DNA of 64,000 bases from Desulfosoma sp. (lineage in GTDB: Bacteria > Desulfobacterota > Syntrophobacteria > Syntrophobacterales > DSM-9756), in contig JBBFKW010000006.1 of the NCBI GenBank assembly GCA_037481835.1, positions 32,001 to 96,000 on the forward strand. The letters are read 5' to 3'. Both the position numbers and the translations under genes were made by a program. The notes below the pieces were generated by a model. The model ran no database searches and had not been told where the DNA came from. It worked only from the letters and a program-made list of their open reading frames with translations. Below, one piece after another: positions 43,013 through 62,229 of this stretch (its first letter is position 1; every line of letters begins with the position of its first letter).

Positions 43013-45247
43013 TTAGAACGCCGGGGATTTGGCGACCCGGCCCAAGTCGCCCCGAAGCCGATGGGCCAGCAGCGTGCATCGCTTCTGAATCCGGTCGTTT
43101 CGCACGGCCATGGCCAGGGCCTTTCGCGACCCCACCAGCACCACAAGCTTTCGGCCGCGCGTTACGGCCGTGTAGAGCAGGTTCCGCTGGAGCATCACGT
43201 AGTGTTGGGTGACGAGGGGCACCACCACCGCCGGGTATTCGCTCCCCTGGGACTTGTGCACACTCACGGCGTAGGCATGGGTGATTTCGTCCAGCTCCGA
43301 AAAATCGTAGGCCACCACGCGACCGTCCATGAGCACCCGGATTTCCTGGTTTTCCTCGTCCACCGCATGGATCCGGCCCAGATCGCCGTTGAAGACGTCC
43401 TTGTCGTAGTTGTTGCGTAGCTGCATGACCTTGTCGCCCACGCGGTAAACCCGCCCGGCCCGTTCCACGGCGCGCCCTCGGGGGTTGAGCGCCCTCTGGA
43501 GGGCCTCGTTCAGGTTCTGGGCGCCCACCGTCCCGCGGTGCATGGGGCTGAGCACCTGGATATCGTCCACGGGATCGAGCCCGAACCGGGCGGGGATGCG
43601 CTTCGTGCAGAGTTCCAGCACCACTTGGAGCACATCCTGGGGATCGTCCTTTTCGATGAAATAGAAATCCGACAGTCCCCCTTGGCGGGAACCGCCGTTG
43701 ATGGGAAACAGCCCTTCCCGGATCCTGTGGGCGTTGACGACGATGAGGCTCTTTCGGGCCTGGCGGAAAATTTCGCTCAGGCGCACCACGGCAAAGGCCC
43801 CCGAGTCGATGATGTCCTGGAGGACGTTGCCGGCCCCCACCGACGGCAGCTGGTCCACATCGCCGACGAAAATCACGGTGGTTTTGGGGGCCACGGCCTT
43901 CAGGAGGTGATGGGCGAGGAGCGCATCGAGCATGGAGGCTTCATCCACGATGAGGCAGTCGGCGGCCAGGGGCTTGTTTTCATTGCGCTGGAAGCCTCCC
44001 GCCTGAGGGCTGAATTCCAAAAGCCGGTGGATGGTGGCCGCCTCATGCCCTGTGGTTTCGCTCAATCGTTTGGCGGCGCGGCCGGTGGGGGCGGCCAGAG
44101 CCACGCGGGCCCCCAGGCGCTTGTAGGCGGCGCACACGGCCTTGACCAAAGTGGTCTTGCCGGTGCCGGGGCCTCCCGTGATGACCAGGACCTTGTCCGT
44201 GAGCGCTTTGCGGACGGCTTCCATCTGGAGCGGCGCCAGGGGAAAGGGCAGGCTCGCCGTGACGGCGCTCAGGGTTTCGTCGATCTTGGCGGGCGGGAAC
44301 CGTTTGGCGAAGGAGGCCACATAGGTCAGGCGGGCGGCCGTCTGCGTTTCCGCCGCATGGTAGCCTCGAAGATAAACGGCCGTCTCATCCCCCATGAGGC
44401 GCGCCGCCTCCTCGGGGAGCCGTTCCAGCACGGCGCGCCCGTCGGCGCTCAAGTTTTGCAGGCCCTTCGCCAAGACCTCCACGGGGGCTTCCAGAAGTTT
44501 TCGGGCGTCTTCCAGCAGCCGCTTTTTCGGCACGCACACGTGGCCTTCATCGGCGGCCTGAAAAAGCACGTAATGGAGGCCCGCTTCGGCCCGGAGCTCG
44601 GAATCCGGCCCGAAACCCAGGTTCCGGGCGATCTTGTCGGCGGTGACGAAGCCGATGCCCGCCACATCCATGGCGATCCGGTAGGGGTTTTCCCGGAGGA
44701 CCTTGAGGGATTCCTTGCCGTACTGCTTGAAGATCCGGGTCGCATGGGAGGCGCTCACCCCGTGGGTCTTGAGGAAGATCATGACTTCCCGGATTTCTTT
44801 CTGATCGTCCCAGGCCTTGAGGATCATGCGAAGGCGCTTGGGGCCGATCCCGTCCACTTGCAGGAGCCGCTCCGGGTCGGTGTCGATAACCTCCAGGGTG
44901 GCCGTCCCGAAGGCCTTGACGATGCGTTTGGCCATCTCAGGCCCGATGCCCTTGATGAGGCCCGAGCCCAAGTATTTGCGGATGCCTTCCACGGTGTCGG
45001 GGCTGAGGGTCTCGTATTGGTCGGCCCGGAACTGTTCGCCGTACTTGGGATGGCGGCTCCAGGCCCCGCGGAGCCGAAGCACTTCGCCGGGTGTGACCGA
45101 AACGAAGGACCCCACCACGGTCACCAGGTCGCGGCGGCCGCGCACCTTGAGGCGCAAGACACTGTAGCCGTCCTCTTCGCCGGCGTAGGTGATGCGTTCC
45201 ACTTGGCCTTCCAGGGTTTCCACGCTCGAAGCCCCTCGATCCTGCAT
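43013..45247 (-). CDS. recD2: RecD2-type ATP-dependent DNA helicase
   Basis: HPKYGEQF, HhH motifs, GGPGTGKT, APTGRAAKR, DEASM, GDVDQLPSVG, HKSQGSEY, LLYTAVTRG. Confidence 0.95.
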   Translation of the reverse strand: MQDRGASSVETLEGQVERITYAGEEDGYSVLRLKVRGRRDLVTVVGSFVSVTPGEVLRLRGAWSRHPKYGEQFRADQYETLSPDTVEGIRKYLGSGLIKGIGPEMAKRIVKAFGTATLEVIDTDPERLLQVDGIGPKRLRMILKAWDDQKEIREVMIFLKTHGVSASHATRIFKQYGKESLKVLRENPYRIAMDVAGIGFVTADKIARNLGFGPDSELRAEAGLHYVLFQAADEGHVCVPKKRLLEDARKLLEAPVEVLAKGLQNLSADGRAVLERLPEEAARLMGDETAVYLRGYHAAETQTAARLTYVASFAKRFPPAKIDETLSAVTASLPFPLAPLQMEAVRKALTDKVLVITGGPGTGKTTLVKAVCAAYKRLGARVALAAPTGRAAKRLSETTGHEAATIHRLLEFSPQAGGFQRNENKPLAADCLIVDEASMLDALLAHHLLKAVAPKTTVIFVGDVDQLPSVGAGNVLQDIIDSGAFAVVRLSEIFRQARKSLIVVNAHRIREGLFPINGGSRQGGLSDFYFIEKDDPQDVLQVVLELCTKRIPARFGLDPVDDIQVLSPMHRGTVGAQNLNEALQRALNPRGRAVERAGRVYRVGDKVMQLRNNYDKDVFNGDLGRIHAVDEENQEIRVLMDGRVVAYDFSELDEITHAYAVSVHKSQGSEYPAVVVPLVTQHYVMLQRNLLYTAVTRGRKLVVLVGSRKALAMAVRNDRIQKRCTLLAHRLRGDLGRVAKSPAF

Positions 45248-45320
45248 TGGTTTTGACAACGGCACGGTGATTGTTAGAATAGCATTGAAATCTCGACGAT
45301 TCCAAGAAGGGAGGACGACC

Positions 45321-45557
45321 ATGGCTCTGTACATCAAAACCGATGATTACCGCAAATACGGCATCAGCAAGTATTCCACGCTGGAACAGGTGCGGGCCGT
45401 GGTCCAAAGGGAACTGAACATTCGACCGCTCTTCGTGCGGTTCGTCAATAAGCATGAATTCATCCGGGTGGATTTCCTGAAGCCCCAGGCCCGCCGCAAG
45501 AGGGATAGATCCCAGCCCAAGGCCGGCGAGGGAGGCCGTCGGCGCCGCCCCCGCTGA
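45321..45557 (+). CDS. Small basic hypothetical protein (78 aa)
   Basis: Strong RBS AAGGGAGG; MALYIKTDDYRKYGISKYS...; Arg-rich tail. Confidence 0.7.
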   Translation: MALYIKTDDYRKYGISKYSTLEQVRAVVQRELNIRPLFVRFVNKHEFIRVDFLKPQARRKRDRSQPKAGEGGRRRRPR

Positions 45558-45842
45558 ACCCCCGGGGGCTGTTCCGCCCACCCGGTCCAGCTGCCCCTCG
45601 GGGAGGGTCGCCTCCCCGGTCCCCGCGGGCGGGCGCGCCTCCCCCGTCCCCGCTGAAGACACGGGGGGCGCTTCCTTTTGGCCCGTCCCCGATGAAACCC
45701 AAGGGGTGGTTTTGCTCACCCGGTCCCCCTGAACCTCGGGGGTGGTTGCGTCTGCTCCTTCCCCGCGGGCGGGCGCGCCTCCCCCGTCCCCGCGGACGGG
45801 TTCGAGTTCACCTTGCTCTCTCTACGGCTTTCCCGCTTCCGT

Positions 45843-46034
45843 CTCCCTCTCCCCCCCGGGCTCGCCGCTTCCGTCTCCCTCTCCCCCTGGTCTTGCGGAT
45901 TCTTAGCTCCCTCTCCCGCCACACTAACGGATTCCATTCTCCCGCTCTCCCCAGGTTCGGAGGCTACAAGCTCCCTCTCCCCCTTTAGGGGGAGAGGGCT
46001 GGGGTGAGGGGGCCAAAGGGCCGGGGTGAGGGGG
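45843..46034 (-). repeat. Palindromic element copy 1 with ~32-bp degenerate tandem array
   Basis: CCCTCTCCCCC-TTTA-GGGGGAGAGGG-CT-GGGGTGAGGGGG at 45973-46012; CTCCCTCTCCC cores recur leftward about every 32 bp. Confidence 0.9.
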
Positions 46035-46065
46035 CCAATTCAACAAGGATCGCCGGGAATCCACT

Positions 46066-46428
46066 ATGCACCCTCCGAGAAAACCAAAGGACATCACAAC
46101 AAAGGCCCGCTCTCTGAGAAAAAACCAAACCGACGCCGAATCGCTCCTCTGGCTTCATCTCAAGGGCCGACACCTGGCGGGAAAGAAGTTTCGCCGCCAG
46201 TACCCCATCGGGCCTTTTGTGGCGGACTTCGTCTGCGCCGAAGCAAAACTCGTCGTGGAAATCGACGGCGGGCAGCATGCCGCCCAAAACGAGCGGCAAA
46301 AGGATGCTCGGCGCTCAGAATACATGGAAGCTTTGGGATATCGGGTCCTGAGGTTTTGGAACAATGAAGTCTTGAATGAAACGCACGCGGTGTTGGAAGT
46401 CATTCGGCGGCATCTGGTAAGGGATTGA
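46066..46428 (+). CDS. DUF559 (Vsr-like / YcjD-family) endonuclease, copy 1
   Basis: ARSLRKNQTDAE..LW, FRRQYPIGPFVADF, LVVEIDGGQH, GYRVLRFWNNEV. Confidence 0.92.
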   Translation: MHPPRKPKDITTKARSLRKNQTDAESLLWLHLKGRHLAGKKFRRQYPIGPFVADFVCAEAKLVVEIDGGQHAAQNERQKDARRSEYMEALGYRVLRFWNNEVLNETHAVLEVIRRHLVRD

Positions 46429-46430
46429 CA

Positions 46431-46817
46431 CCCCCTCACCCTGCCCTCTCCCCCTAAAGGGGGAGAGGGGAACTGCATTTGAGGCTCTCTTCCCCCCAAA
46501 GGGGCAGAGGAGAACTGGATTTGAGGTTCTCTTCCCACAGTAAACTGGTAAACTTAAATCTGTTTCTCCCCCAAACTCGAAGCTTCCTATCTCCCTCTCC
46601 CCCCGGTCGTGCCGATTCCGTGCTCCCTCTCCCCCTGGGCTTGCGGATTTCGATCTCTCTCTTCCCCCTTGGAGTTCGCTGACTTCAAGCTCCCTCTCCC
46701 GCCACACTAACGGATTCCATTCTCCCTCTCCGCCCAGGTTCGGAGACTCCAAACTCCCTCTCCCCCTTCAGGGGGAGAGGGCTGGGGTGAGGGGGCCAAA
46801 GGGCCCGGGTGAGGGGG
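46431..46817. repeat. Palindromic element copies 2 (+) and 3 (-) with converging arrays
   Basis: CCCCCTCACCCTGCCCTCTCCCCC-TAAA-GGGGGAGAGGGG at 46431-46470; inverted copy at 46756-46795; ~43-bp and ~32-bp units between them. Confidence 0.9.
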
Positions 46818-46848
46818 CCAATTCAACAAGCATCACCGGGAGTCCACT

Positions 46849-47211
46849 ATGCACCCTCCGAGAAAACCCAAGGACATCACAACAAAGGCCCGCTCTTTGA
46901 GAAAAAACCAAACCGACGCCGAATCGCTCCTCTGGCTTCATCTCAAGGGCCGACACCTGGCGGGAAAGAAGTTTCGCCGCCAGTACCCCATCGGGCCTTT
47001 TGTGGCGGACTTCGTCTGCGCCGAAGCAAAACTCGTCGTGGAAATCGACGGCGGGCAGCATGCCGCCCAAAACGAGCGGCAAAAGGATGCTCGGCGCTCA
47101 GAATACATGGAAGCTTTGGGATATCGGGTCCTGAGGTTTTGGAACAATGAAGTCTTGAATGAAACGCACGCGGTGTTGGAAGTCATTCGGCGGCATCTGG
47201 TGAGGGATTGA
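46849..47211 (+). CDS. DUF559 endonuclease, copy 2 (identical protein)
   Basis: Same 120-aa sequence; 783-bp tandem period; three synonymous differences. Confidence 0.92.
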   Translation: MHPPRKPKDITTKARSLRKNQTDAESLLWLHLKGRHLAGKKFRRQYPIGPFVADFVCAEAKLVVEIDGGQHAAQNERQKDARRSEYMEALGYRVLRFWNNEVLNETHAVLEVIRRHLVRD

Positions 47212-47213
47212 CA

Positions 47214-47582
47214 CCCCCCTCACCCTGCCCTCTCCCCCTAAAGGGGGAGAGGGGAACCGGATTTGAGGCTCTCTTCACCCTAAAGGGGGAGAGGGGAACT
47301 GGATTTTGGGGCTTTCTTTTCCCTAAAGGGGGAGAGGGGAACTGGATTTCAGGATGTCTTCACCCCAAAGGGGGAGAGGGGAACTGGATCTCAGGGTTTC
47401 TTCCCCCTAAGGGGAAGGGGGGAAACGCCGGCGGCATCTGGTGAGGGACTGACACCCCCTCACCCTGCCCTCTCCCCCTAAAGGGGGAGAGGGGAACTGG
47501 ATCTCAGGCTTTGTTACCCCCAAAGGGGGAGAGGGAAGCTGGATTTGAGGATGTCTTCACCCCTAAAGGGGGAGGGGGGAAA
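47214..47582 (+). repeat. Palindromic element copies 4 and 5 with 42-43-bp arrays
   Basis: Elements at 47214-47254 and 47455-47494; unit ~CCCTAAAGGGGGAGAGGGGAACTGGATTTGAGGnTnTCTTC. Confidence 0.9.
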
Positions 47583-47679
47583 CGCAGCACGACGGCCCCT
47601 TCCCTTGAGGGCGACAAACATGCCGAAGGACGCCGCCGCTCCGGTAGGCGTTTGAGAGCCCTGCCGGTCGGGGGCCCAT

Positions 47680-47925
47680 TTGAAGGCGGTGCCGGTCCCC
47701 TGATTCTCAAAGGGCAGGGCCTGTCCCCAAATTATTAAGGGCAGGGCCTGTCCCCCAATTATTGAAGGGCGCAGCCGGTCCCCTGATTTTTTAAAGGGTA
47801 ATGCTTGTCCCCCAACGATTGAAGGGCGCTGCCGGGGCTCTAAGCATTGAAGGACACTGCTGGTCCTCCAGTCATTGGATGGCGCTGCTGAGGCTCTGAT
47901 CGCCCGAAGGTTGTGCCGGTCTCCC
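47680..47925 (+). repeat. Degenerate ~28-bp tandem array (about 8-9 units)
   Basis: Units resembling TGAAGGGCnnnGCCTGTCCCCnAATTAT. Confidence 0.75.
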
Positions 47926-47984
47926 GGCCCTCGCAGGCGGAATCCCGCGTCTGTCTCCTACGCTCGCAGATTTCAACCGTTCTC

Positions 47985-48197
47985 TGCCCAAGGCTAGCGG
48001 ATTCCTACCTCGCCCTCTCCCCAGCCTCGGGCATTCCAACCTCCCTCTCCCTACGGTCAGACCTTCCAAGCTCCCTTTCCCGCCACACTGGCGGATTCCA
48101 TTCTCCCGCTCCGCCCAGGTTCGGAGACTCCAAACTCCCTCTCCCCCTTCAGGGGGAGAGGGCCGGGGTGAGGGGGTCAAAGGGCCGGGGTGAGGGT
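47985..48197 (-). repeat. Palindromic element copy 6 with array (orphan copy of the DUF559 left flank)
   Basis: 48070-48197 closely matches 46689-46815 but is followed by the trp promoter instead of a nuclease gene. Confidence 0.88.
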
Positions 48198-48230
48198 GCC
48201 AAGGGGTCGGGGCAAGGGCGCAAAAAAATC

Positions 48231-48261
48231 TTGACATCCCCTCCCCGAAGAATTTATCCAT
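48231..48261 (+). promoter_or_regulatory. Candidate sigma70 promoter of the aroF-trp operon
   Basis: TTGACA at 48231; AT-rich TTTATCCAT 17-18 nt downstream. Confidence 0.55.
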
Positions 48262-48307
48262 AGCCTGTCTCAAAAGACGGCACCCAAAAAAGCGAAAGGC
48301 AAAAACC

Positions 48308-48403
48308 GTGCGCGCAGTGCAACAATCCCGAAATCTTCATTTCTGGTGGTGCTGGTGGTGGTGCGTTGCGCACGGGTGCGCCGACGGGGGTGCGTCGCTT
48401 TAG
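48308..48403 (+). CDS. trpL: trp operon leader peptide (31 aa)
   Basis: GTG...TAG reading MRAVQQSRNLHFWWCWWWCVAHGCADGGASL; five Trp codons; GAAAGG RBS; upstream of terminators and the trp operon. Confidence 0.88.
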   Translation: MRAVQQSRNLHFWWCWWWCVAHGCADGGASL

Positions 48404-48427
48404 ACCACCTGCACGAATGAAGCCATC

Positions 48428-48465
48428 AAGACCGTGGGCCACCCGGCCCACGGTCTTTTTGTTTT
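48428..48465 (+). terminator. Attenuator terminator 1
   Basis: AAGACCGTGGGCC-ACCC-GGCCCACGGTCTT followed by TTTGTTTT. Confidence 0.88.
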
Positions 48466-48471
48466 GGGGAC

Positions 48472-48505
48472 AAGGCCGTGGGATTTCATCCCGCGGCCTT
48501 TTTTC
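48472..48505 (+). terminator. Attenuator terminator 2
   Basis: AAGGCCGTGGGA-TTTCA-TCCCGCGGCCTT followed by TTTT. Confidence 0.82.
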
Positions 48506-48549
48506 ATTGTACGCCATCCCTCAAGGGAACTCACAGGAGGACACCCATC

Positions 48550-49620
48550 ATGCTGGTCGTGATGCACAAAGGAGCCACACCGGAAGACGTGGCGCACGTG
48601 GTGCGCGCCATCGAAAGTCGAGGCTACAGCGCGCGGCCCATCCAGGGCGGCGAACGCATGGCCATCGGCATCCTCAACAATCGCGGCCCGGTGGATCCCA
48701 ACTGGGTGTTGGGCCTTCCCGGCGTCAAGGAAGCCATCCCGGTGACCCGACCGTACAAGCTGGTGAGCCGCGAATTTCACCCGCAGGACACGGTGGTGAC
48801 CGTGGGCGATGTGCGCATCGGCAACGGCACGGTGGTCGTCATCGCCGGGCCGTGCGCCGTGGAAAGCGAGGAACAGGCCCTGACCATCGCCCGCCACGTG
48901 AAGCGCGCCGGGGCGCATCTTTTCCGAGGCGGAGCCTTCAAGCCTCGCACCTCCCCTTACGCCTTCCAAGGACTGGGCGAACAAGCCCTGAAAATCCTCG
49001 TCAAGGTGCGCGAAGAAACGGGTCTTCCCATCGTGACGGAAGCCTTGGACCACACCGTCTTCGACCTGGTGGAAGAAGCCGCGGACATCGTCCAGATCGG
49101 CGCCCGCAACATGCAGAATTTCACCTTGCTTCGCCGCGCGGGGCATTCCTCCAAGCCCGTGCTCCTCAAACGAGGCATGGCCGCGACCCTGGAAGAATGG
49201 CTCATGGCCGCCGAATACATCCTGGAAGGCGGCAACCCCAACGTCATCTTGTGCGAACGCGGCATCCGCACCTTTACGGATCACAGTCGAAACACGTTGG
49301 ATCTTTCGGCGGTGCCCGTGGTGCGCAAGGAAAGCCACCTGCCCATCATCGTGGATCCCAGCCACGCCTGCGGCCGCCGGGATCAGGTGATTCCGTTGAG
49401 TCGCGCCGCCGTGGCCGTCGGCGCCAACGGACTCATGGTGGAAGTCCATCACCGGCCGGAAGAGGCTCTGAGCGACGGCGCCCAGTCGCTCTACCCCGAC
49501 CAGTTCCGAAGGCTGTGCGACGAAATTCAACCGCTGGTGCAACTGTACGCCCGGGCGCCCGAATCCCGAAGCGGAGCCGAGGCGGCCCGTTTCGACGCGG
49601 TGGCGGGGGCGTCGGTTTAA
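48550..49620 (+). CDS. aroF: DAHP synthase, type I-beta
   Basis: IAGPCAVES, GGAFKPRTSPY, QIGARNMQNF, LLKRG, CERGIRTF, DPSH. Confidence 0.95.
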   Translation: MLVVMHKGATPEDVAHVVRAIESRGYSARPIQGGERMAIGILNNRGPVDPNWVLGLPGVKEAIPVTRPYKLVSREFHPQDTVVTVGDVRIGNGTVVVIAGPCAVESEEQALTIARHVKRAGAHLFRGGAFKPRTSPYAFQGLGEQALKILVKVREETGLPIVTEALDHTVFDLVEEAADIVQIGARNMQNFTLLRRAGHSSKPVLLKRGMAATLEEWLMAAEYILEGGNPNVILCERGIRTFTDHSRNTLDLSAVPVVRKESHLPIIVDPSHACGRRDQVIPLSRAAVAVGANGLMVEVHHRPEEALSDGAQSLYPDQFRRLCDEIQPLVQLYARAPESRSGAEAARFDAVAGASV

Positions 49621-51980: not shown

Positions 51981-53009
51981 GTGTTTCGCGACTGCCTGCA
52001 AAAGATCGCCAAAAGGGTGGACCTTTCGGAAGAAGAGATGAGCGCCGTCATGGATGGGCTCATGTCCGGGGACCTCACCGACGCCCAGATCGGGGCCTTT
52101 ATGGCCGCTCTGGCCACCAAGGGAGAAACCTTTGCGGAACTGGCCGGGGCGGCCCGGACCATGCGCCGCAAGGCCCACCGCATCCACGTGAACGCCTCCA
52201 CGGTGGTGGACACCTGCGGGACGGGAGGCGACGGCGCCCACACGTTCAACATTTCCACCACGGCGGCCTTCGTCGTGGCGGGATGCGGCGTTACGGTCGC
52301 CAAGCACGGCAACCGGTCGGTGTCCAGCCGGTGCGGGAGCGCCGACGTGCTGGAAGCTTTGGGGGTGCGCCTGGATACGGACCCGGAAGTGGTGGAAGAG
52401 GCCGTGGGGGAAATCGGCATCGGGTTTCTCTTCGCGCCGCTCTACCACGGCGCCATGCGCCATGCCGCCAAAGCCCGAAAAGAAGTGGGCCTCCGATCCA
52501 TTTTCAACATGCTGGGCCCCCTCACCAATCCCGCCGGAGCCAACTGCCAGGTGCTGGGCGTCTACGCCCCGGAGCTGACGGAAATGTTCGCCAAGGCCCT
52601 GCAGCGTCTCGGGGCGCGCCGCGCTTTCGTCGTCCACGGTCACGACGGCCTGGACGAAATCACGGTGTGCGCCCCCACCCGGGTGACGGAACTCCAAGAC
52701 GGATTGCTGCGAACCTATGATTTGGACCCGGAACGGATCCTGGGCCGAACGGCCGACCCCGAAGCCCTTCGCGGCGGATCGCCCCAAGAAAACGCCAAAA
52801 TTCTGCGATCCATCCTGGAAGGGGCGGCGGGGCCGCGCCGGGACGTGGTCGTCTTGAACGCGGCGGCGGCTCTGGTGGCTGCAGGATCGGCGGAGGACCT
52901 GAAGGAGGGGGTGAGGCTCGCCGAACAGAGCCTGGATTCCGGCGCAGCCCGGGCCAAGCTGGACGCCCTGGTGCGCTTCACTCGGGAACGCGCTCCATCG
53001 GTGGGGTGA
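51981..53009 (+). CDS. trpD: Anthranilate phosphoribosyltransferase
   Basis: DTCGTGGDG, FNIST, KHGNRSVSS, FNMLGPLTNP, DGLDE. Confidence 0.96.
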   Translation: MFRDCLQKIAKRVDLSEEEMSAVMDGLMSGDLTDAQIGAFMAALATKGETFAELAGAARTMRRKAHRIHVNASTVVDTCGTGGDGAHTFNISTTAAFVVAGCGVTVAKHGNRSVSSRCGSADVLEALGVRLDTDPEVVEEAVGEIGIGFLFAPLYHGAMRHAAKARKEVGLRSIFNMLGPLTNPAGANCQVLGVYAPELTEMFAKALQRLGARRAFVVHGHDGLDEITVCAPTRVTELQDGLLRTYDLDPERILGRTADPEALRGGSPQENAKILRSILEGAAGPRRDVVVLNAAAALVAAGSAEDLKEGVRLAEQSLDSGAARAKLDALVRFTRERAPSVG

Positions 53010-53029
53010 AGGGTTGCCCGCTCATCCGG

Positions 53030-53515
53030 CCCCCTCACCCCGGCCCTCTCCCCCTAAAGGGGGAGAGGGGGGCATTGAACTTCCGCCGATGGGTTGGGCC
53101 CTGTCCGCTGGATTCGTGCCACTTCTCCTTCGGGTCGGCTCCCCCCTTCCCTGGATCAGTTCCCCCTCTCCCCTTCATTCATTCCCCCTCTCCCCTTGAG
53201 GGGAGAGGGTCGGGGTGAGGGGTGATAGGCAAGGGGATAAGGGTAAGAAGTAGAGGGTAGGCAGGGAAGGGTAAGGGGTAAAGGATGAGCGGGGAAAAAA
53301 GCTCGGGGTCCGGATTCACGCTTCTATCGATGGGTTCCCCCTTGCCTCGATGGCACGCTCCCTGTCTCCTGGATTCGAGCCACTTCTCCTTCGGGTCGGC
53401 TCCCCCCTTCCCTGGATCAGTTCCCCCTCTCCCCTTCACTTATTCCCCCTCTCCCCTTGAGGGGAGAGGGTCGGGGTGAGGGGTGAAGCGTAAGGCGAGA
53501 GGGGTGAGGGGTGAT
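53030..53515. repeat. Palindromic element copies 7 (+), 8 (-) and 9 (-), a ~125-bp direct duplication and purine-rich heptamer-like tracts
   Basis: Elements at 53030-53070, 53184-53222 and 53445-53483; 53100-53225 repeated at 53361-53486. Confidence 0.88.
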
Positions 53516-53546
53516 TCGTGAAGATTGAAAAAACGGAGTAGCCACA

Positions 53547-54539
53547 ATGGCCGATTTTCTTTCCCGAATTCTTCATGCCAAGAAGGCGGAAACGGCGGCG
53601 CAGGCGGCCCGGCGGCCCCTTGCGGAGATCCGCCGCGATGCGGAAGCCATGCCGCCGCCCCGTCCCTTCGCCGCCGCCTTGGCCCTCGGTCCGGATCGCA
53701 CCTCCCCCCTTCCGGGAAAAATCGCCCCCGTAGTCCCTGGGGTGGCGGAACCAACTTTGGCGCCCTCATCCTCCCCAAAGGCGCCCCTTCTGCCCGCTTC
53801 CGGTACGGACCGGAGGTTCGCGCTCCCAGAGGCCGCCCAGGGGGATGCGCCGAACGCTGGCCATCCATCCTGCCCCGTGCGGTTGATTGCGGAAATCAAG
53901 AGGGCGTCCCCGTCCAAGGGACCGCTCCGCCCCGACCTCGACCCGGCGGATCTGGCTCACGCTTACGCCAGGGGCGGCGCGGCGGCCCTTTCCGTCTTAA
54001 CCGACGGCCCTTTCTTCGGCGGCTCCCTGGAGGATCTCGCGGTCGCCCGAAGCGCCGTCTCCCTTCCGGTCCTTCGCAAAGATTTCATCGTGAGCGACTA
54101 TCAAATTTACGAAGCGAGGGCCGCCGGAGCCGATGCGGTCCTCCTCATCGTCCGGGCGGTAAGCCCCGCTTTTCTCCGGGACGCCCTGGCCTTGTGCGAG
54201 GCTCTTGGGCTGGGCGCCTTGACGGAAGTTCACAACGAGGCCGAAGTGGAAACCGCCCTGGCCTGCGGCGCCCAAATCCTCGGCGTAAACAACCGCAACC
54301 TTGAAACGTTTGAAACAAATGTGCACACCTCCATCCGCCTGCGCTCGCAAATCCCCGAAGACCGCATCATGGTCGCCGAAAGCGGCATCCGCGACCGCTC
54401 GGACATCGAGCGGCTTCGGGCCGTGGGAATTTTAAATTTCCTCGTTGGAGAATCCCTGGTGCGCGCTGCGGACCCGGAAGCAGCCGTGCGAGATTTCCTG
54501 GGCCCTTTCGGCCCCCTCACCCCGACCCTCTCCCCCTAA
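53547..54539 (+). CDS. trpC: Indole-3-glycerol-phosphate synthase with ~60-aa insertion
   Basis: LIAEIKRASPSKG, LSVLTD, PVLRKDFI, GVNNRNL, VAESGI, FLVGESL. Confidence 0.93.
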   Translation: MADFLSRILHAKKAETAAQAARRPLAEIRRDAEAMPPPRPFAAALALGPDRTSPLPGKIAPVVPGVAEPTLAPSSSPKAPLLPASGTDRRFALPEAAQGDAPNAGHPSCPVRLIAEIKRASPSKGPLRPDLDPADLAHAYARGGAAALSVLTDGPFFGGSLEDLAVARSAVSLPVLRKDFIVSDYQIYEARAAGADAVLLIVRAVSPAFLRDALALCEALGLGALTEVHNEAEVETALACGAQILGVNNRNLETFETNVHTSIRLRSQIPEDRIMVAESGIRDRSDIERLRAVGILNFLVGESLVRAADPEAAVRDFLGPFGPLTPTLSP

Positions 54540-54950
54540 AGGGGGAGAGGGAGATCTGGAAGGTTCCAATCCTCGAGGGGGAGAGGGGGATGGGGAGCGG
54601 GCCAATCCTCAAGAGGGAGAGGGGGATAAGGAACGGGCCCATGCTGAAGTGGAGAGGGGGATAAGAAGATGGAGAGCAGGCCGGTCCTGAAGGGGGAGAG
54701 GGAGAGGGAGGTGAGGAGCGGGCCAATCCTGAAGTGGAGAGGGGCAAAGGGAGATGCCGAACGTGTCAGTCCTCGAGGGGGAGAGGGGAATGCGGAGCGG
54801 GCCAATCCTGAAGTGGAGAGGGGCAAAGGGAGTTGCGGAAGGTTCGAGCCTTCAAAGGGGGGAGGGGGATGGGGAGCGGGCTGGTCCTAAAGGGGGAGAG
54901 GAGAGAGGGAGGTGAGGAGCGGGCGGATTCCGATGGGGGAGGGGGACGGC
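54512..54950 (+). repeat. Palindromic element copy 10 with ~35-43-bp purine-rich array
   Basis: CCCCCTCACCCCGACCCTCTCCCCC-TAAA-GGGGGAGAGGG then about 10 units containing GGAGAGGG...GAGCGGGCCAATCCT. Confidence 0.88.
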
Positions 54951-55138
54951 AGGGCCGGGGCGAGTCCACCGGGGAAAATGAGGCTTGACGGCTTTGACCA
55001 TGAAAAAGTGGCGACATTATGAATTTGAAGGGGCGAGCCCACGGGGAAAAATGAGGCGCGACGGCGGGGGGCCCATGGCAGGTTTGCTATGGCGCGGTTC
55101 CTGCCGAGCCAAAAGGCTCAGGGCTATGGGAGCCAATA

Positions 55139-55292
55139 ACCCCCCATCACGGGCGGCCCATCACAACGAAGGATGAAAGTCTCATAGTTACGGTCTGTTA
55201 CAGAGACTTTCATATACCCCCCATCACGGGCAGCCCGTGACAACAAAGGATGAGAGTCTCGTGGTTACGGGATGTTACCGAGACTTTCATAT
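55139..55292 (+). repeat. Two 77-bp direct repeats, each with an internal hairpin
   Basis: ACCCCCCATCACGGGC...ATGAAAGTCTC...GAGACTTTCATAT at 55139 and 55216. Confidence 0.85.
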
Positions 55293-55308
55293 CAACGGAG
55301 GCCTACCG

Positions 55309-57241: not shown

Positions 57242-58039
57242 ATGAGCCGACTGGCACGGCTTTTCGCCGATCTCAAGGAAAAACACGAAGGCGCCCTCGT
57301 GGGCTTCGTCACGGCAGGCGATCCCACGCCCGACGTGTCGTTTCACATCCTTCGGGCCATGGCCGAAGCGGGCGTGGACATCATCGAACTGGGGGTGCCC
57401 TTTTCCGATCCCACGGCCGACGGCCCCGTGATCCAGCGCTCGTCGGCCCGCGCGCTCGCCCAAGGCATGACCCTGGAAAAGACCCTGGATCTGTGCCGGG
57501 CGCTGCGCCGGGAAACCGACGTGCCGCTTGTCGTCTTCAGCTACTACAATCCCATCCTGGCCATGGGCGGAAGGCGCTTTTATGAAGAAAGCGTGCGAGC
57601 CGGAGCCGACGCCGCCCTCGTCGTGGACCTCCCGCCCGAAGAATCGCGGGAACTGCTGGACCAGTGGAGCGGGAACCGGCTGGATTTCATCCGGCTTGCG
57701 GCGCCCACGACCCCGACGGAGCGCATGGCGGCCATCGCCCGGGACGCCTCGGGGTTTCTCTACCTGGTGTCCATGACCGGGGTGACGGGAAGCGCCGGGC
57801 TGGATCTTTCGGAAGTGGCGGCAACGGCGGCGCGGTTGAAGGAGGTGACTTCCCTTCCCGTCTGCGTGGGCTTTGGACTTTCGCAACCCGAGCACGTTTC
57901 GGCGGTGTGCCGGGCGGCGGACGGCGCCGTGGTGGGAAGCGCCTTTGAAAGGCTCATCGAGAAAAACCTCGGGGCGAAAGATCTTCCCGAGCGGATCGCC
58001 CGCTACGCCCGCACCCTCAAAGCCGCCACCCGCTCGTGA
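57242..58039 (+). CDS. trpA: Tryptophan synthase alpha chain
   Basis: ELGVPFSDPTADGPVIQ, YYNP, VDLPPEE, GVTG, VGFG, VVGSA. Confidence 0.97.
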   Translation: MSRLARLFADLKEKHEGALVGFVTAGDPTPDVSFHILRAMAEAGVDIIELGVPFSDPTADGPVIQRSSARALAQGMTLEKTLDLCRALRRETDVPLVVFSYYNPILAMGGRRFYEESVRAGADAALVVDLPPEESRELLDQWSGNRLDFIRLAAPTTPTERMAAIARDASGFLYLVSMTGVTGSAGLDLSEVAATAARLKEVTSLPVCVGFGLSQPEHVSAVCRAADGAVVGSAFERLIEKNLGAKDLPERIARYARTLKAATRS

Positions 58040-58049
58040 CTCCGGGCCG

Positions 58050-58426
58050 TGCGCCCCTTCCCCGTCGGGGCATGCCAGCCCCCTTTCCCCGCCGGGGAAC
58101 GCCGGCCCCCTCTCCTCCTTCGGCCACTTCCAGCCCCCTGCGCCGATTGGGGGATACCAGCTCCCTCTTTGCCGAATTTTCGGCCCCTTATCCCCCTTCC
58201 GGCAATTCAGCCCCCTCCCCCCTCTGGGCGATCTCAGACTCCTTCTCCCGTTTGGGGGACGCCAGCCTCCCTCCCCCCTTCCGCCAATTCCAGTCCCCTT
58301 CCCCCCTTGGGGGATCCTAGACTCTCTCTGCCCCCTTTGGGGAATCTCAGACTCCCTCTCCCCCCTCTGGGGAATTTTAGGCTCCCTCTCCCCCCTCTGG
58401 GGGGAGAGGGCCGGGGTGAGGGGGGG
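58050..58426 (-). repeat. Palindromic element copy 11 with ~30-bp array decaying leftwards
   Basis: Element at 58384-58426; unit ~CTCCCTCTCCCCCCTCTGGGGAATnTnAGr. Confidence 0.88.
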
Positions 58427-58715
58427 CACACCCGCCGATCTCCCCCTAAAAATCCCCCTTCCCTCGGCGCGCGCCGCGGGTTATGAGCCGACACAAACCC
58501 CGCCGGGTTCGGTTCCGCCGGAAGGCCAGCCTTTTAACGGGCCGTCCCCGGGCTTTTCGACACCGCCTTCCCGCTCTCGTTTTTTTCGCACTCAGCGCTT
58601 CCGGAAGGCATCCGCCCTCTCCTTCATGCCACGGAAAGGAGGTGGGAACGCGTCAACGCCAATCCCTCGAGACCCTCTAAGACCTGGAAACCTTCATCTT
58701 CCACGGAGGAGCGAC

Positions 58716-59969
58716 ATGAAGAAATGGATCGGCCTGGTGAGTGTGGTCTTTTTCGCCGCAGGAGCGGCCCTTTACGCGGCAAGCCTGAGCGATGTGGAAG
58801 AACTGGGAAAACAGATCATGTTCGACCAAAAACTTTCCGTGCGTAACAACCAATCCTGCGCCAGCTGTCACGATCCCAAGGCGGGCTGGGCGGGCGGCGT
58901 GCCGGGGATCAATCTCAAGGGCGCCGTCTATCCCGGATCCATCCGCACGGCTTTCGGCAACCGAAAGCCCCCGTCCGCCTCCTACGCCACGGTGGCCCCT
59001 CGGCTTGATTACGATCCCGACGAAGGGCTTTTCTTCGGAGGCAATTTCTGGGACGGGCGGGCTACCGGCTGGGAGCTGGGGAATCCCGCGGCCGACCAAG
59101 CCCGGGGGCCTTTCCTCAACCCGGTGGAGCAGGCTCTGCCCTCTCCGGCCGATGTGGTCCAAAGGGTGTGCGCGTCCAAGTACGGCTGGCTGTTTATGGC
59201 GCTGTGGGGGGACGACGCCTGCGACAACATGACCAGGGGGTACAACGCTGTGGCCCTCTCCGTTGCCGCCTACGAGGCGTCACGGGAGGTGAACGCCTAC
59301 AGTTCCAAGTACGATGCCGTCCAGATGGGAAAAGCCGAATTCACGGACCAGGAGAGTTTGGGGCTGGAAGTCTTCGAAGGCAAAGGACGGTGCGCCGCCT
59401 GCCATGTCCTCGATCCCCAGACGGACGGCGCTCCTCGCGTTTTCACCGACTTTACCTACGACAACCTGGGCATCCCCAAAAATCTTAATAATCCCTTTTA
59501 CGCCACGGACCCGACTTTCGTAGACAAGGGCCTCGGGGACTTTCTCAGGAGCCTTGCCGGGGACGACTCCTGGAGGAGCGCTCCCTACGTGACGGAAAAC
59601 ATAGCCGCTCTGGACAACGAAACCTTGTACGAACTCGCCACCCAAAACGACGGCAAGTTCAAGGTGCCCTCTTTAAGGAATGTGGACCTGAGGCCCGGTC
59701 CGGGCTTTGTCAAAGCCTACGGGCATAACGGCTACTTCAAGTCCCTGGAATCCATCGTTCACTTCTACAACACCAGGGACGTGCTGCCGCGCTGTGAGAG
59801 CGACATGACCGACGCCCAAGCCATGAAAGCCGGCTGCTGGCCCGCTCCGGAATTTCCCGATAACGTGAACACGGACGAATTGGGCGACCTGGGACTTTCG
59901 CCCGAGGAAGAGGCCGCCCTCGTCGCGTTCCTGAAGACCCTCTCCGACGGCTACTTCAAACCCGAATAA
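58716..59969 (+). CDS. Diheme cytochrome c peroxidase / MauG-family protein
   Basis: Signal peptide; CASCH and CAACH; FWDGRA, QARGPFLNPVE, FKVPSLRNV, YGHNG, LVAFLKTL. Confidence 0.92.
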   Translation: MKKWIGLVSVVFFAAGAALYAASLSDVEELGKQIMFDQKLSVRNNQSCASCHDPKAGWAGGVPGINLKGAVYPGSIRTAFGNRKPPSASYATVAPRLDYDPDEGLFFGGNFWDGRATGWELGNPAADQARGPFLNPVEQALPSPADVVQRVCASKYGWLFMALWGDDACDNMTRGYNAVALSVAAYEASREVNAYSSKYDAVQMGKAEFTDQESLGLEVFEGKGRCAACHVLDPQTDGAPRVFTDFTYDNLGIPKNLNNPFYATDPTFVDKGLGDFLRSLAGDDSWRSAPYVTENIAALDNETLYELATQNDGKFKVPSLRNVDLRPGPGFVKAYGHNGYFKSLESIVHFYNTRDVLPRCESDMTDAQAMKAGCWPAPEFPDNVNTDELGDLGLSPEEEAALVAFLKTLSDGYFKPE

Positions 59970-59999
59970 GCCGACGGCCCCGCCTCCACCTCGTTCACT

Positions 60000-60304
60000 C
60001 CGCCCTGTGGGGGACTTCCGGCCCCACCTCCCCCCTCAGGGACATTTCAGGCTCCCTCTCCCCCTGTTCTGGAATCTTAGACGCCCTCTGCCCCTCTAGG
60101 GAATCTCAGACTCCCTCTCCCCTCGTTGGGGAATCCTAGACGCCCTCTGCCCCTCTGGGAAATCTCAGGCTCCCTCTCCCCCCTCTGGGGAATCCTAGAC
60201 GCCCTCTGCCCCTCTGGGAAATCTCAGGCTCCCTCTCCCCCCTCTGGGGAATTTTAGGCTCCCTCTCCCCCCTCTGGGGGGAGAGGGCCGGGGTGAGGGG
60301 GGGG
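60000..60304 (-). repeat. Palindromic element copy 12 with 29/30-bp array
   Basis: Element at 60261-60304; exact 59-bp dimer repeated at 60128-60186 and 60187-60245. Confidence 0.9.
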
Positions 60305-60370
60305 CCTTTCTCCTTTACGATTCCTTCTCAACCCTGAACCCATGACCCCCGCCGGAGGACCCGGCGCGCC

Positions 60371-60520
60371 ATGATCCCCCCGAGCCGCCTCTTCGCTGCC
60401 GGGCGCCGAACCGTTTCCCGGGATCTTCCCGACTTGGGCCGGTACATCCTCATCGGCCGCCTGAACACCGTCGTCGCCTTTTTGGGCAGCCGTCACATCG
60501 CCTTCTTCAGCAGAGGGGAA
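60371..60520 (+). pseudogene. Internally deleted GtrA-family remnant
   Basis: AGRR..RD....RYILIGRLNTVV joined directly to AFLGSRHIAF; matches the N- and C-terminal ends of the GtrA at 62230. Confidence 0.7.
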
Positions 60521-60596
60521 ACTTCCGGTGAAAGCCCCTCTTCTCCTGGAAGAGCGAAGAGCGGCGGCACGGTGAGGACGCAAGGAGGGGGGATGG

Positions 60597-60996
60597 CCCC
60601 CCTCACCCTACCCTCTCCCCCCAAAGGGGGGAGAGGGTAATAAACACAGTTAGACGCAGAGCCGCTCTTAGCCCCGACCGTTGCCTCTCGCTTCCCTTTG
60701 GGGGGAGAGGGTAACAAGCACCTCTCTCCCCCCTTTGGGGGACGAGGGCAATAAACACCTCTCGCTTCCCTTTGGGGGAGAGGGGAATAAGCACATTTAA
60801 ATGTAGAGCGGATCTTAGCCCCTACCTTTCCCTCTCGCCCCAATGTGAGGAGAGGGGGATACACACAGTTAGAGGCAGAGCCGCTTTTAGCCCCGACCGT
60901 TGCCTCTCTCCCCAAGGGAGAAGAGAGGGGCAAAGTTCATTATACGTAGAGCCATTATGAGCCCCTCCCCTTCCGTCTCCCCAAAGGGGGAAAGGG
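60597..60996 (+). repeat. Palindromic element copy 13 with ~36/75-bp degenerate array
   Basis: Element at 60597-60637; ACACAGTTAGAnGCAGAGCCGCTnTTAGCCCCGACCGTTGCCTCTC recurs at ~60644 and ~60863. Confidence 0.85.
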
Positions 60997-61042
60997 AAAA
61001 AGGGTGAGGTGGTGGAGCACACTCGCGGGCGGAGAAGTCATC

Positions 61043-61320: not shown

Positions 61321-61349
61321 CCTCGGTCCTCCGCCTGCTTCCCGGGGGG

Positions 61350-62060: not shown

Positions 62061-62229
62061 GGCTTCCCCCTCTCCTTACCGCTCAGGCCCGTGCCAGGCT
62101 CTTTCCAGGCCCCGACAGCGCAAAAGGGCTTTTGCCATGAAAACCCCGTTGCCCCGGCGTAAAAGGCACGCTACTTTGTTCCCGCAATGGATGAGCGCCG
62201 CCACATTTCTTTTAGCGAAAAGACGCCTC

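Follow-up and report, generated by a model that had tools for sequence, protein, structure and literature searches.

DUF559 is a very common orphan protein family, with members that include E. coli YcjD and NGO0050 of N. gonorrhoeae, the protein of the solved structure 3hrl; to our knowledge, neither YcjD nor NGO0050 has a known function. Enzymes of the PD-(D/E)xK type hydrolyse DNA and form no covalent intermediates. The BoxC/PIT/TM repeats, first described in the 1990s, are associated with genome instability in their vicinity, and in 30 years we know of no origin or partner protein for them. In REP/RAYT systems, by comparison, inverted palindromic repeats stand on either side of an enzyme gene and are also dispersed between genes as singles and doublets, with one or few enzyme genes per repeat population. 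REP and REPIN with RAYT were reportedly described by Nunvar in 2010 and by Bertels and Rainey in 2011.

The BoxC/PIT/TM repeats have been counted in more than 260 genomes, and the sections of Holder et al. (2015; PMC4666352) drawn on here treat them as orphans: ‘we never found ... remnants of transposases or integrases’. According to the same sections, short loops join three blocks, namely a pyrimidine arm, a purine arm and a further purine block that mirrors the second (G opposite G, A opposite A or T), and the repeats are intergenic, multicopy, found in either orientation and sometimes arranged as palindromic pairs. The E. coli motif folds into a triplex in vitro, which was not seen in duplex DNA or in vivo (PMC4666352). 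In Ssn/NTS systems, as set out in the portions of Chenal et al. (2025; PMC11893778) used here, a small single-domain nuclease gene has its own hairpin repeat on both sides, tens to hundreds of gene-less copies are scattered through the genome, and many enzyme-repeat pairs exist across phyla. Both sides are flanked for 42% of Ssn homologs, and 81% of genomes with more than 200 repeats have a homolog (PMC11893778). The homing endonucleases of the I-Bth0305I/EDxHD type have a Vsr-like catalytic fold and an E-x-D...H...D motif; I-Bth0305I carries extra DNA-binding domains, is encoded in a group I intron and has recA as its homing target (PMC3239194, in part). Caulobacter VsrA, a Vsr-like nuclease with a DUF559 domain, can cause DNA damage when it acts; it has a proposed mismatch repair role linked to a solitary cytosine methyltransferase, and the parts of that report used here describe no repeat context (PMC12907096).

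Two DUF559 genes bracketed by inverted repeats

The window analysed here, 64,000 nt of a Desulfosoma genome, holds two DUF559 genes that encode identical 120-aa proteins (Table 1). Each lies between a left element and its reverse complement, which starts 2 nt past the stop codon, a layout that the sequence-only reading of this DNA had described; at gene 1 the stop TGA occupies 46426-46428 and CCCCCTCACCC of the right element runs from 46431. The two genes are not independent instances, which corrects that reading: a 783-bp segment is duplicated in tandem (45905-46687 and 46688-47470), with one gene per copy. The cassettes sit within a 2.8-kb spacer packed with repeats, in which 32-nt C-rich arrays lie 5’ of each left element and 42-nt G-rich arrays lie 3’ of each right element. 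A third unit in this spacer is evidently a cassette that has lost its gene, keeping a 23-nt remnant of the gene’s 3’ end and the right element.

Table 1. Repeats and genes of the DUF559 locus and of the DNA downstream of it, in window coordinates.
Feature	Position	Strand	Basis
C-rich array 5’ of left element 1, ~32-nt units, core CTCCCTCTCCCC	45842-45972	+	direct-repeat families
Left element 1: 11-bp hairpin (45973-45998) and third block GGGGTGAGGGGG (46001-46012)	45973-46012	+	inverted repeats
Third block GGGGTGAGGGGG, second copy	46023-46034	+	read from sequence
DUF559 gene 1, 120 aa, YcjD-type Vsr-fold predicted nuclease	46066-46428	+	PF04480, E 4.4e-40
Right element 1, reverse complement of left element	46430-46469	-	inverted repeats
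Two 42-nt units, GGGGGAGAGGGG core, overlapping right hairpin	46451-46540	+	direct-repeat family
C-rich array 2, 32-nt units	46590-46755	+	direct-repeat families
Left element 2	46756-46795	+	inverted repeats
DUF559 gene 2, tandem duplicate, same protein as gene 1	46849-47211	+	ORF comparison
Right element 2	47213-47253	-	inverted repeats
Array of five 42-nt G-rich units	47235-47430	+	direct-repeat family
DUF559 ORF remnant (last 23 nt + stop), then right element 3 (47454-47493)	47420-47493	+	repeat copy 47429-47558, 89%
Array of three 42-nt G-rich units	47475-47590	+	direct-repeat family
C-rich array 3, 32-nt units	47994-48136	+	direct-repeat families
Left element 3, gene-less; degenerate third blocks until ~48217, then TTGACA box common to congeners	48137-48177	+	inverted repeats
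Gene-less element, 22 nt past trpD stop, in 546-nt spacer	53032-53069	-	pattern search
Gene-less element, trpD-trpC spacer	53186-53221	+	pattern search
Gene-less element, trpD-trpC spacer, second copy of 260-nt direct repeat	53447-53482	+	pattern search
Gene-less element, trpC 3’ end; then tandem array, ~45-nt units, GGGAGAGGG core	54514-54551	-	pattern search
Gene-less element	58384-58422	+	pattern search
Gene-less left-type element, opens L-300 nt-R unit	60261-60299	+	pattern search
Right-type element, closes L-300 nt-R unit	60600-60637	-	pattern search
Degenerate element	60963-60996	-	pattern search
Gene-less element	61278-61316	+	pattern search

Left element 1 has the sequence CCCTCTCCCCC-ttta-GGGGGAGAGGG-ct-GGGGTGAGGGGG, and the blocks of the element follow one another as pyrimidine arm, loop, purine arm and mirror-image purine block. 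Its computed DNA fold (-14.2 kcal/mol) leaves the third block unpaired, and computed Watson-Crick hairpins come to -13 to -14 kcal/mol. At the cassettes the 40-nt inverted arms show 85-88% complementarity from end to end, rising to 97% across 31 nt. Among repeats with an asymmetric purine arm across the loci compared, 93 have a third block that mirrors the arm and 4 have one that repeats it directly. Three-block, multicopy and dispersed, the window element is by its make-up a BoxC/PIT/TM intrastrand triplex motif, and the likeness to BoxC suggested by the sequence-only reading was correct. It has the block order and short loops of the published repeats, and their intergenic, multicopy setting in either orientation with occasional palindromic pairs (PMC4666352, in the sections drawn on here). 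It differs from these orphans in its position on both sides of a nuclease gene, in the many co-varying variants that exist of it, in its 11-bp stems, and in its outward extension by the 32-nt and 42-nt tandem arrays. In 45000-49000 no Rfam model reached its gathering score, and a search of 45300-48600 gave no match to a sigma-70-type promoter, which says nothing on expression.

The encoded protein matches PF04480 with 136.4 bits (cut-off 20.6) over profile positions 2-108 of 109, and belongs to the same family as E. coli YcjD and N. gonorrhoeae NGO0050 (3hrl). Its only Pfam matches are DUF559 and REase_MTES_1575, not GIY-YIG. Neither the protein (at E <=0.01) nor the genome matches PF03852, the canonical Vsr profile. 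The structure 3hrl matches residues 21-115 with E 1.4e-26, and a structure model (pLDDT 86.6) has a predicted fold that resembles 3hrl, the catalytic domain of I-Bth0305I (3r3p) and Vsr (1cw0), with I-Bth0305I as the next match after 3hrl (Foldseek E 1.6e-4, TM 0.80 on target). Of 161 proteins compared, 158-161 share each of the residues E25, R44, Q45, D54, E65, D67, H71, D80 and R83, and 159-161 share each of the four residues D54, E65, D67 and H71; catalytic-type residues are conserved, on what is predicted to be a Vsr-like PD-(D/E)xK fold. Prediction of a homodimer returned a score of 0.00, which counts neither for nor against one.

Gene-less repeats and the history of the locus

After the second cassette, the window holds 11 more composite elements, one of them degenerate, close to the 10 further copies counted earlier. 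The genome has about 62 elements (63 pattern matches) in 27 loci, with only two DUF559 genes. The repeats cluster beside the gene in this genome: 9 of the 27 element loci lie within 91 kb starting at the cassettes, 2.5% of the genome (binomial P ~1e-8), or 8 of 26 when the cassette locus is left out. The 11-mer GGGGGAGAGGG occurs 163 times in the 3.63-Mb genome compared with ~6 times expected from base composition, and a control with the element pattern read backwards gave 0 matches in all genomes searched. Gene-less copies take the form of singles, doublets of both ends and tandem arrays, including doublets with 22-nt and 34-nt centres (contig C6, 165991-166994). Similarity to DUF559 was looked for in the L-300 nt-R unit (60261-60637) and none was found.

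Neither an element nor a stand-alone DUF559 gene was found in three congeners (G001-G003), and spacers are far shorter in congener G003 than here: 342 versus 2776 nt in the syntenic recD2-aroG spacer, 30 versus 546 nt between trpD and trpC, and 138 versus 807 nt 3’ of trpC. Gene and repeats alike were evidently acquired by this lineage after its split from the congeners. The sequence-only reading had suggested looking for empty sites in related strains; the congeners have neither gene nor element and short spacers at the same sites, with no clean insertion junction readable. At the trpD-trpC insertion, which is gene-less and bounded R...L rather than L...R, divergence from G003 blurs the junctions, no target duplication is readable, and the gene-bearing cassettes of another genome (G021) gave no readable junction against its congeners G024 and G040 (~75% identity, synteny broken at the cassette). 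A related strain represented by metagenome contigs has the DUF559 gene in this position too, and of the 11 differences between the two genes 8 are synonymous; its flanking arrays are of other length, the C-rich array 5’ of left element 1 having a 64-nt skip, and its contigs break at these repeats. In the present genome the gene occurs as a tandem duplicate only, with no recent spread.

The complete genome of a relative (G006) carries 192 and 101 copies of two repeat variants, which were paired as a 110-nt doublet at all eight loci fetched. This doublet has the same upstream/downstream pairing as the flanks of DUF559 genes in genome G063, and G006 contains ~100 such gene-less doublets of both cassette ends with one intact DUF559 gene. 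Three further copies of the left end of its own cassette keep the first 33-50 nt of the ORF. The abundant left-type variant differs from the one beside the only intact gene, and the latter variant has just 4 copies.

Gene-repeat pairing in other genomes

We compared two sets of loci. Set 1 is the best 80 of 585 relatives from many phyla. For set 2, 301 genomes were sampled evenly across the phylum, and 80 of their 102 HMM matches, the present genome excluded, were used. With a flank inverted-repeat score of at least 12 counted as positive, inverted repeats flank 64 of 79 loci in set 1 versus 14 of 297 shifted pseudo-genes, and 69 of 78 loci in set 2 versus 10 of 390 shuffles; the enrichment at DUF559 flanks that the sequence-only reading had proposed to test is strong in both. 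The strict three-block motif was found upstream of 108 of 158 loci and downstream of 108 of 158, whereas the controls gave 0 of 316 for shuffled flanks and 12 of 732 for shifted windows. At 121 of 161 loci, repeats lie within a few nucleotides of both ends of the gene (~360 nt). Cassettes measure 380-539 bp between the outer hairpins (median 426, n=86), with no transposase gene inside. Judged from these flanks, the pairing of gene and repeat spans phyla.

Repeat variants include GGGAGAGGG/GGGTGAGGG, GGGGGAAGG/GGATGGGGG, GGGAGGGG/GGGGAGGG, AAAGGGGGG/GGGGGGATT and others, and some branches have one variant upstream of the gene and another downstream. Placed on the protein tree, the upstream variant labels require 34 changes versus a shuffled mean of 58 (minimum 54, 200 shuffles) and the downstream labels 48 versus 62. 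The repeat variant is evidently inherited along with the protein branch, although low label-change counts can also reflect plain co-inheritance among kin.

Presence of the element also tracks presence of the gene, as had been proposed: at least one element was found in 54 of 69 DUF559-positive genomes versus 60 of 232 negative ones, and at least five in 36 of 69 versus 34 of 232. Among genomes with at least ten elements, 23 of 47 are without a strong DUF559 gene (with 92, 81 and 61 elements, for example), so the gene is not needed for repeat upkeep; many of these assemblies are fragmented, with contig breaks at the repeats, and may hide DUF559 genes. Zero copies of the repeat variant counted were found in 15 of the 69 positive genomes, which may hold other variants. 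The distribution of the gene is patchy (0 of 3 congeners, 69 of 301 genomes in the phylum), and among the best 80 of 585 relatives, proteins 48-65% identical come from very different phyla. As to a transfer vehicle, matches to 33 of 72,556 plasmid records and 2 of 50,697 phage records indicated no clear carrier. Many of the 33 plasmid records are chromids or whole chromosomes filed as plasmids.

How nuclease and repeat may be connected

We favour the view, with a probability of roughly 0.55, that DUF559 and its repeat belong together in the way that RAYT belongs with REP and Ssn with NTS, here with a Vsr-fold enzyme as the nuclease. The locus shares with REP/RAYT the inverted repeats flanking an enzyme gene and the dispersed gene-less copies; however, RAYT is an HUH Y1 transposase with a covalent intermediate while DUF559 is a predicted hydrolytic nuclease, and the RAYT-like gene of this genome goes with another REP. 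It shares with Ssn/NTS a small single-domain nuclease gene with its own hairpin repeat on both sides, abundant scattered gene-less copies, many enzyme-repeat pairs across phyla and a similar strength of association (PMC11893778, in the portions used here). The enzymes differ in fold, GIY-YIG in Ssn and Vsr/PD-(D/E)xK in DUF559, and the NTS/SRM repeat is a hairpin with a conserved upstream stretch, unlike the mirror third block of the DUF559 repeat. Cutting of ssDNA has been shown for Ssn (PMC11893778) and is a prediction for DUF559.

We suggest that the DUF559 nuclease would recognise its own repeat when this is single-stranded and folded into a hairpin with a third strand, and would nick beside it, as RAYT does at REP and GIY-YIG Ssn at NTS. 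From the nick, host repair and replication might then make new copies of the repeat, be it through template switching, gene conversion or slippage. Because a PD-(D/E)xK enzyme is hydrolytic, it could not perform strand transfer alone; spread of the repeat would depend on host repair and replication, and the copying step is a proposal only. Copying that depends on a nick would account for the outward tandem arrays and for the instability reported at such repeats. The earlier suggestion that the nuclease recognises or nicks the hairpin and propagates it agrees with the flank, genome-level, congener and transposase comparisons; the element-rich genomes without a strong DUF559 gene fit it poorly.

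Since the pairing recurs across many bacterial phyla, DUF559 is the best candidate partner for the BoxC/triplex repeats. We put forward only tentatively the broader idea that DUF559/YcjD proteins are the missing partners of BoxC/PIT/TM repeats, in a third, independently evolved nuclease-repeat partnership that recognises an intramolecular DNA triplex. We found no paper linking DUF559 to these repeats in the article texts consulted. If the idea holds, DUF559 would be the first enzyme family specific for triplex-folded DNA, and its many enzyme-site pairs would be a natural and programmable set of tools for cutting ssDNA. Should the enzyme indeed cut the folded repeat that goes with it, the origin of the repeats and the instability of their neighbourhoods would be accounted for, and a third enzyme class would stand beside REP/RAYT and NTS/Ssn.

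The nuclease might instead serve the host by cutting its own repeats, which would mark chromosomal DNA as has been proposed for Ssn/NTS in Neisseria; it could trim repeat-bearing ssDNA, for example in transformation, recombination or replication restart, with the gene placed among its own sites for co-inheritance or regulation. The layout is that of NTS-ssnA-NTS, for which site-specific ssDNA cutting and an effect on transformation have been shown (PMC11893778, in part). Purifying selection on the gene, visible in the mostly synonymous strain differences, conservation of catalytic-type residues and the persistence of repeats in many genomes without the gene would suit such a role. Yet the gene is patchy even within genus and order, 12 of 161 DUF559 genes have internal stops, cassette remnants occur, and proteins 48-65% identical are found in very different phyla, all of which better fits an element that comes and goes than a housekeeping function. 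We consider a host-serving role unlikely.

Homing is a less probable explanation again. Here the nuclease, possibly as a dimer, would cut dsDNA at gene-less palindromic doublets, and repair from an occupied copy would insert the gene between the two halves. I-Bth0305I, whose catalytic domain is the next fold match, is homodimeric, cuts a pseudopalindromic site and, like the DUF559 cassette, behaves as a selfish gene (PMC3239194, in part); gene-less doublets exist in this genome and in G006, and cassettes are compact and uniform in length. The DUF559 protein is a bare 120-aa domain encoded between repeats in intergenic DNA, with no intron or intein, and no occupied/empty pair at one site was found in the comparison of G021 with G024 and G040. 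Against homing, the ~100 empty doublets of G006 against one intact gene are unlike efficient homing, which moreover cannot put 38-nt single elements at new, unrelated sites, and where upstream and downstream variants differ the joined site would not be palindromic.

That DUF559 is a passenger or an unrelated enzyme, doing for example very-short-patch-type mismatch nicking while host processes or another enzyme spread the repeats between which its gene tends to lie, we regard as improbable: repeat-rich genomes without the gene, the ascription of repeat loss and change to replication problems by Holder et al. (PMC4666352, in part) and the DNA damage seen with Caulobacter VsrA, itself tied to a cytosine methyltransferase, when the methyltransferase is absent (PMC12907096, in part) point that way, but a passive passenger predicts neither the bracketing at both ends nor the shift of variant with protein branch, and this genome (99.4% complete) has no C5 cytosine methyltransferase (PF00145), which with the absence of a Vsr profile match led us to reject very-short-patch repair. 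Another transposase as mobiliser, the alternative that the sequence-only reading had itself raised, was rejected as well for this genome: its only Y1/RAYT-like gene, a single weak Y1_Tnp match (27.9 bits, contig C8, 140941-141240), goes with another REP and is 65 kb away from the closest of the elements, and congener G001, without elements, has two better Y1_Tnp matches.

Probable traces of a similar cassette are visible in E. coli, where ycjD is followed at a distance of ~150 nt by a BoxC version, GGAGAGGG-tta-GGGTGAGGGG, and the end of the ycjD ORF falls inside a CCCTCTCCC-tga hairpin remnant; with no 5’ element in K-12, ycjD looks like a decayed cassette. In the present genome the repeats have expanded spacers in the trp operon region, and so bear on operon structure and on breaks in metagenome assembly.

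A DUF559 gene between inverted copies of a triplex-type repeat

The products of both DUF559 ORFs in the window match PF04480 with an E-value of 4.4e-40, and the two genes arose from a 783-bp tandem duplication. Each ORF is preceded by a left element, CCCTCTCCCCC-loop-GGGGGAGAGGG-nn-GGGGTGAGGGGG, in which a pyrimidine arm, loop and purine arm are followed by a mirror purine block, and a right element, the reverse complement of the left one, begins 2 nt beyond its stop codon. We refer to the gene bracketed by these elements as a cassette. Stacked 32-nt C-rich units lie outside every left element and stacked 42-nt G-rich units outside every right element. In computed folds of the single strand, each element forms an 11-bp hairpin (-13 to -14 kcal/mol) with the third block unpaired.

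Features of the cassette locus (window coordinates)
Feature	Position	Strand	Remarks
recD2-type helicase gene	43013-45337	minus	divergent; one border of the repeat-filled 2.8-kb spacer
DUF559 ORF 1	46066-46428		120-aa product, identical to that of ORF 2
DUF559 ORF 2	46849-47211		120-aa product, identical to that of ORF 1
Third unit	47420-47493		final 23 nt of the DUF559 ORF plus right element; rest gone
Third left element	48137-48177		without gene
DAHP synthase gene	48478 onward		first of the trp gene run; other border of the 2.8-kb spacer

Two further features of this spacer were seen. The interval separating the third right element from the third left-side array contains about eight tandem 28-nt units (ATTGAAGGGCGCTGCCGGTCCCC-like; 47677-47940) with no relation to the triplex-type element. 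Within 48385-48505, just 5' of the DAHP synthase/trp genes and after a TTGACA box common to the congeners, are two hairpins that resemble terminators and have T runs (48428-48457 and 48472-48500); they may represent a leader or attenuator, and the only Rfam match to this segment was a weak one to ar14 (E 0.026).

The element is the G/C-rich 'intrastrand triplex motif' (TM, TMECO) of Holder et al., 2015 (PMC4666352), a repeat named BoxC first and PIT elements later. As given in the main text of that paper, it has 23 copies in E. coli MG1655 and is carried by more than 260 genomes, its strand, when isolated, forms a stable triplex in vitro, no triplex being seen in duplex DNA or in vivo, local variability is raised at the repeats, and transposase or integrase remnants were never found beside them. 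That main text contains none of the words DUF559, ycjD, endonuclease or Vsr, and in the open-access papers searched we found no link between DUF559 and BoxC, PIT or triplex-motif repeats. In E. coli K-12, ycjD, a DUF559 gene, terminates within a CCCTCTCCC-tga hairpin remnant, and about 150 nt 3' of it there is a copy of part of the gene's 3' end (GGAGACGGTGCTGGAGAATATTC...), after which comes a full BoxC-type element, GGAGAGGG-tta-GGGTGAGGGG. The layout of this downstream region (positions 2041-2900, minus strand, of locus L024) is the same as that of the gene remnant at 47420-47493 in the window.

Pairing of gene and repeat across genomes

Pairing was assessed in two samples of DUF559 loci, both picked without regard to their flanks. 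The first comprised the best 80 of 585 confirmed relatives (48-65% identical) on contigs taken at one genome per species, with record titles naming Desulfobacterota, Alpha-, Beta- and Gammaproteobacteria, Chloroflexota, Nitrospirota, Verrucomicrobia, Melainabacteria, Bipolaricaulota and others. Here the 160-nt flanks reached a local inverted-repeat score of at least 12 at 64/79 loci, compared with 14/297 pseudo-genes shifted inside the same loci. The second was the best 80 of 102 DUF559 places outside the source genome in a 301-genome sample, omitting the 20 weakest places and two lying within 260 nt of a contig start; 69/78 loci scored at least 12, compared with 10/390 dinucleotide shuffles. 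The full three-block motif was detected in 137 of the 161 upstream flanks and in 135 of the 161 downstream flanks; 121 loci had it on both sides. With a strict definition (stem of at least 8, spacer of at most 5) it was found at 108/158 loci on each side, while shuffled flanks gave 0/316 and shifted windows 12/732.

Cassettes are small and vary little in size, with 380-539 bp between the outer hairpins (median 426, n=86). The median distance from the end of the third block to the protein match is 21 nt, and that from the protein match to the downstream motif is 7 nt. Several relatives have a reading frame that continues into the right element and terminates within the hairpin loop, so that the protein ends in ...PSPRPSP.

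The repeat has many sequence variants, which include GGGAGAGGG/GGGTGAGGG, GGGGGAAGG/GGATGGGGG, GGGAGGGG/GGGGAGGG, AAAGGGGGG/GGGGGGATT, AAGAGGGGG/GGGGGAGTT and AGAGGGGA/AGGGGTGT, among others. On a FastTree phylogeny of the 161 proteins, upstream variant labels required 34 changes (shuffled mean 58, minimum 54 in 200) and downstream labels 48 (shuffled 62), showing that the gene and its flanks are inherited together; since labels are common to kin, these label changes alone do not prove co-evolution. On some branches the upstream variant differs from the downstream one (e.g. loci L118, L127, L128, L137 and L139-L141), so that the cassette ends can be distinct, like the left and right ends of elements. 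Of 277 hairpins whose purine arm was clearly asymmetric, 93 had a next block that matched only the mirror of the arm and 4 one that matched only its direct copy; 49 fitted both and 131 fitted neither. The triplex-type geometry has thus been kept despite sequence change.

At the level of whole genomes, 69 of the 301, a sample drawn evenly over phylum, were DUF559-positive with the Pfam model (E at most 1e-20). Elements of the source-genome variant occurred at least once in 54/69 positive and 60/232 negative genomes, at least five times in 36/69 and 34/232, and at least ten times in 24/69 and 23/232, counts in which related genomes are not independent. Genomes with 92, 81 and 61 elements showed no strong DUF559 gene, and 15 positive genomes had zero elements of this variant. 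The link is thus clear but far from complete; because fragmented assemblies break at elements, the counts may err in both directions.

Spread of the element and gain in this lineage

The 3.63-Mb source genome (60% G+C) holds 163 copies of the 11-mer core, against about 6 expected, and 63 matches to the composite element at 27 loci on 11 contigs; the reversed pattern, used as a control, had 0 matches in either search set (41 and 301 genomes). No DUF559 genes or recognisable remnants were found elsewhere in this genome. Nine of the 27 element loci fall within 91 kb beginning at the cassettes, 2.5% of the genome (P ~1e-8); without the cassette locus the figure is 8/26. Three gene-less doublets with a 22-nt centre lie at 165991-166994 of the same contig (C6, whose coordinates minus 32000 are those of the window).

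Three same-genus genomes (G001-G003, 95-99% complete) contain no element of the source-genome variant and no stand-alone DUF559 gene. They share the gene order near the window and differ in the spacers: that between recD2 and aroG is 2776 nt in the source genome vs 342 in G003, ~306 in G001 and ~851 in G002, and those between trpD and trpC and after trpC are 546 and 807 nt vs 30 and 138 nt in G003. The conserved order with short, element-free spacers indicates that the elements entered these core spacers once this lineage had diverged from its congeners. A related strain, in contigs of two hot-spring metagenome runs, has the DUF559 gene at the same locus, with 11 differences from the window ORF (8 synonymous) and two fewer 32-nt units upstream.

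The trp spacers (52982-53527 and 54491-55297) are enlarged by elements and two other kinds of repeat, a 260-nt direct repeat and ~45-nt tandem arrays with a GGGAGAGGG core. Past the end (~58033) of the gene order common to the three congeners, 58034-64000 has five gene-less elements. At 60261-60637 and C6:115706-116082, left-type and right-type elements surround 300 nt in copies that are 94% identical; no DUF559 similarity was found in the 300-nt interior, which may be a different cargo, and the stretch in the window has an 89-aa ORF at 60371-60640.

A relative's complete genome (G006) has two abundant repeat variants, in 192 and 101 copies, which at 8/8 loci sampled formed a 110-nt doublet in which 34 nt separate a left end from a right end. 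The same left/right pairing surrounds DUF559 genes in another relative, G063 (L118, L127). One rival, less likely explanation is homing of the gene into doublets. The only intact DUF559 gene of G006 has the abundant right-end variant and a rarer left-end variant (4 copies), and the other three copies of this left end are still joined to the opening 33-50 nt of the ORF, beyond which they break off; gene-bearing cassettes thus once stood at several loci and have since decayed. A second palindromic repeat, GTTCCCAAGCTNNAGCTTGGGAAC, adjoins many G006 doublets and cassette remnants (L199, L203-L205, L207-L209).

The enzyme and its probable action

The DUF559 protein matches 3hrl, a solved structure of an uncharacterised N. 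gonorrhoeae protein, with an E-value of 1.4e-26. The fold of its predicted model (pLDDT 86.6) matched, in order, 3hrl, the catalytic domain of the homing endonuclease I-Bth0305I, and Vsr. E25, R44, Q45, D54, E65, D67, H71, D80 and R83 are each conserved in 158-161 of the 161 proteins, and 12/161 genes have an internal stop.

REP sequences with their RAYTs are the older parallel to the DUF559-repeat pair, which is of a known kind, a nuclease gene accompanied by dispersed copies of its own hairpin repeat. The closest worked-out system is Ssn/NTS: as described in PMC11893778, the gene for Ssn, a small GIY-YIG nuclease, is flanked by its own NTS hairpin repeat, which has hundreds of gene-less copies, and site-specific cutting of ssDNA was shown for Ssn. 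By this analogy and the anatomy of the cassette, DUF559 is most likely a nuclease acting at its own folded repeat. It would recognise the folded single strand and nick beside it, and host copying at the nick could then spread the repeats and build the outward tandem arrays.

The same cutting activity might instead serve the host. Alternatively, DUF559 could have an unrelated function, the gene being a passenger. A mismatch-repair role is opposed by the finding of no C5 methyltransferase partner in the source genome.

We also considered a RAYT-like gene of the source genome as the elements' partner and rejected it, as this gene has its own, different REP. It is a weak Y1_Tnp gene at 140941-141240 of contig C8, with a different palindromic repeat (GTTGGGGTGAGCG...CGAACCCCAAC) on both sides and tandem G-rich units downstream, and looks like a separate REP/RAYT-type pair.
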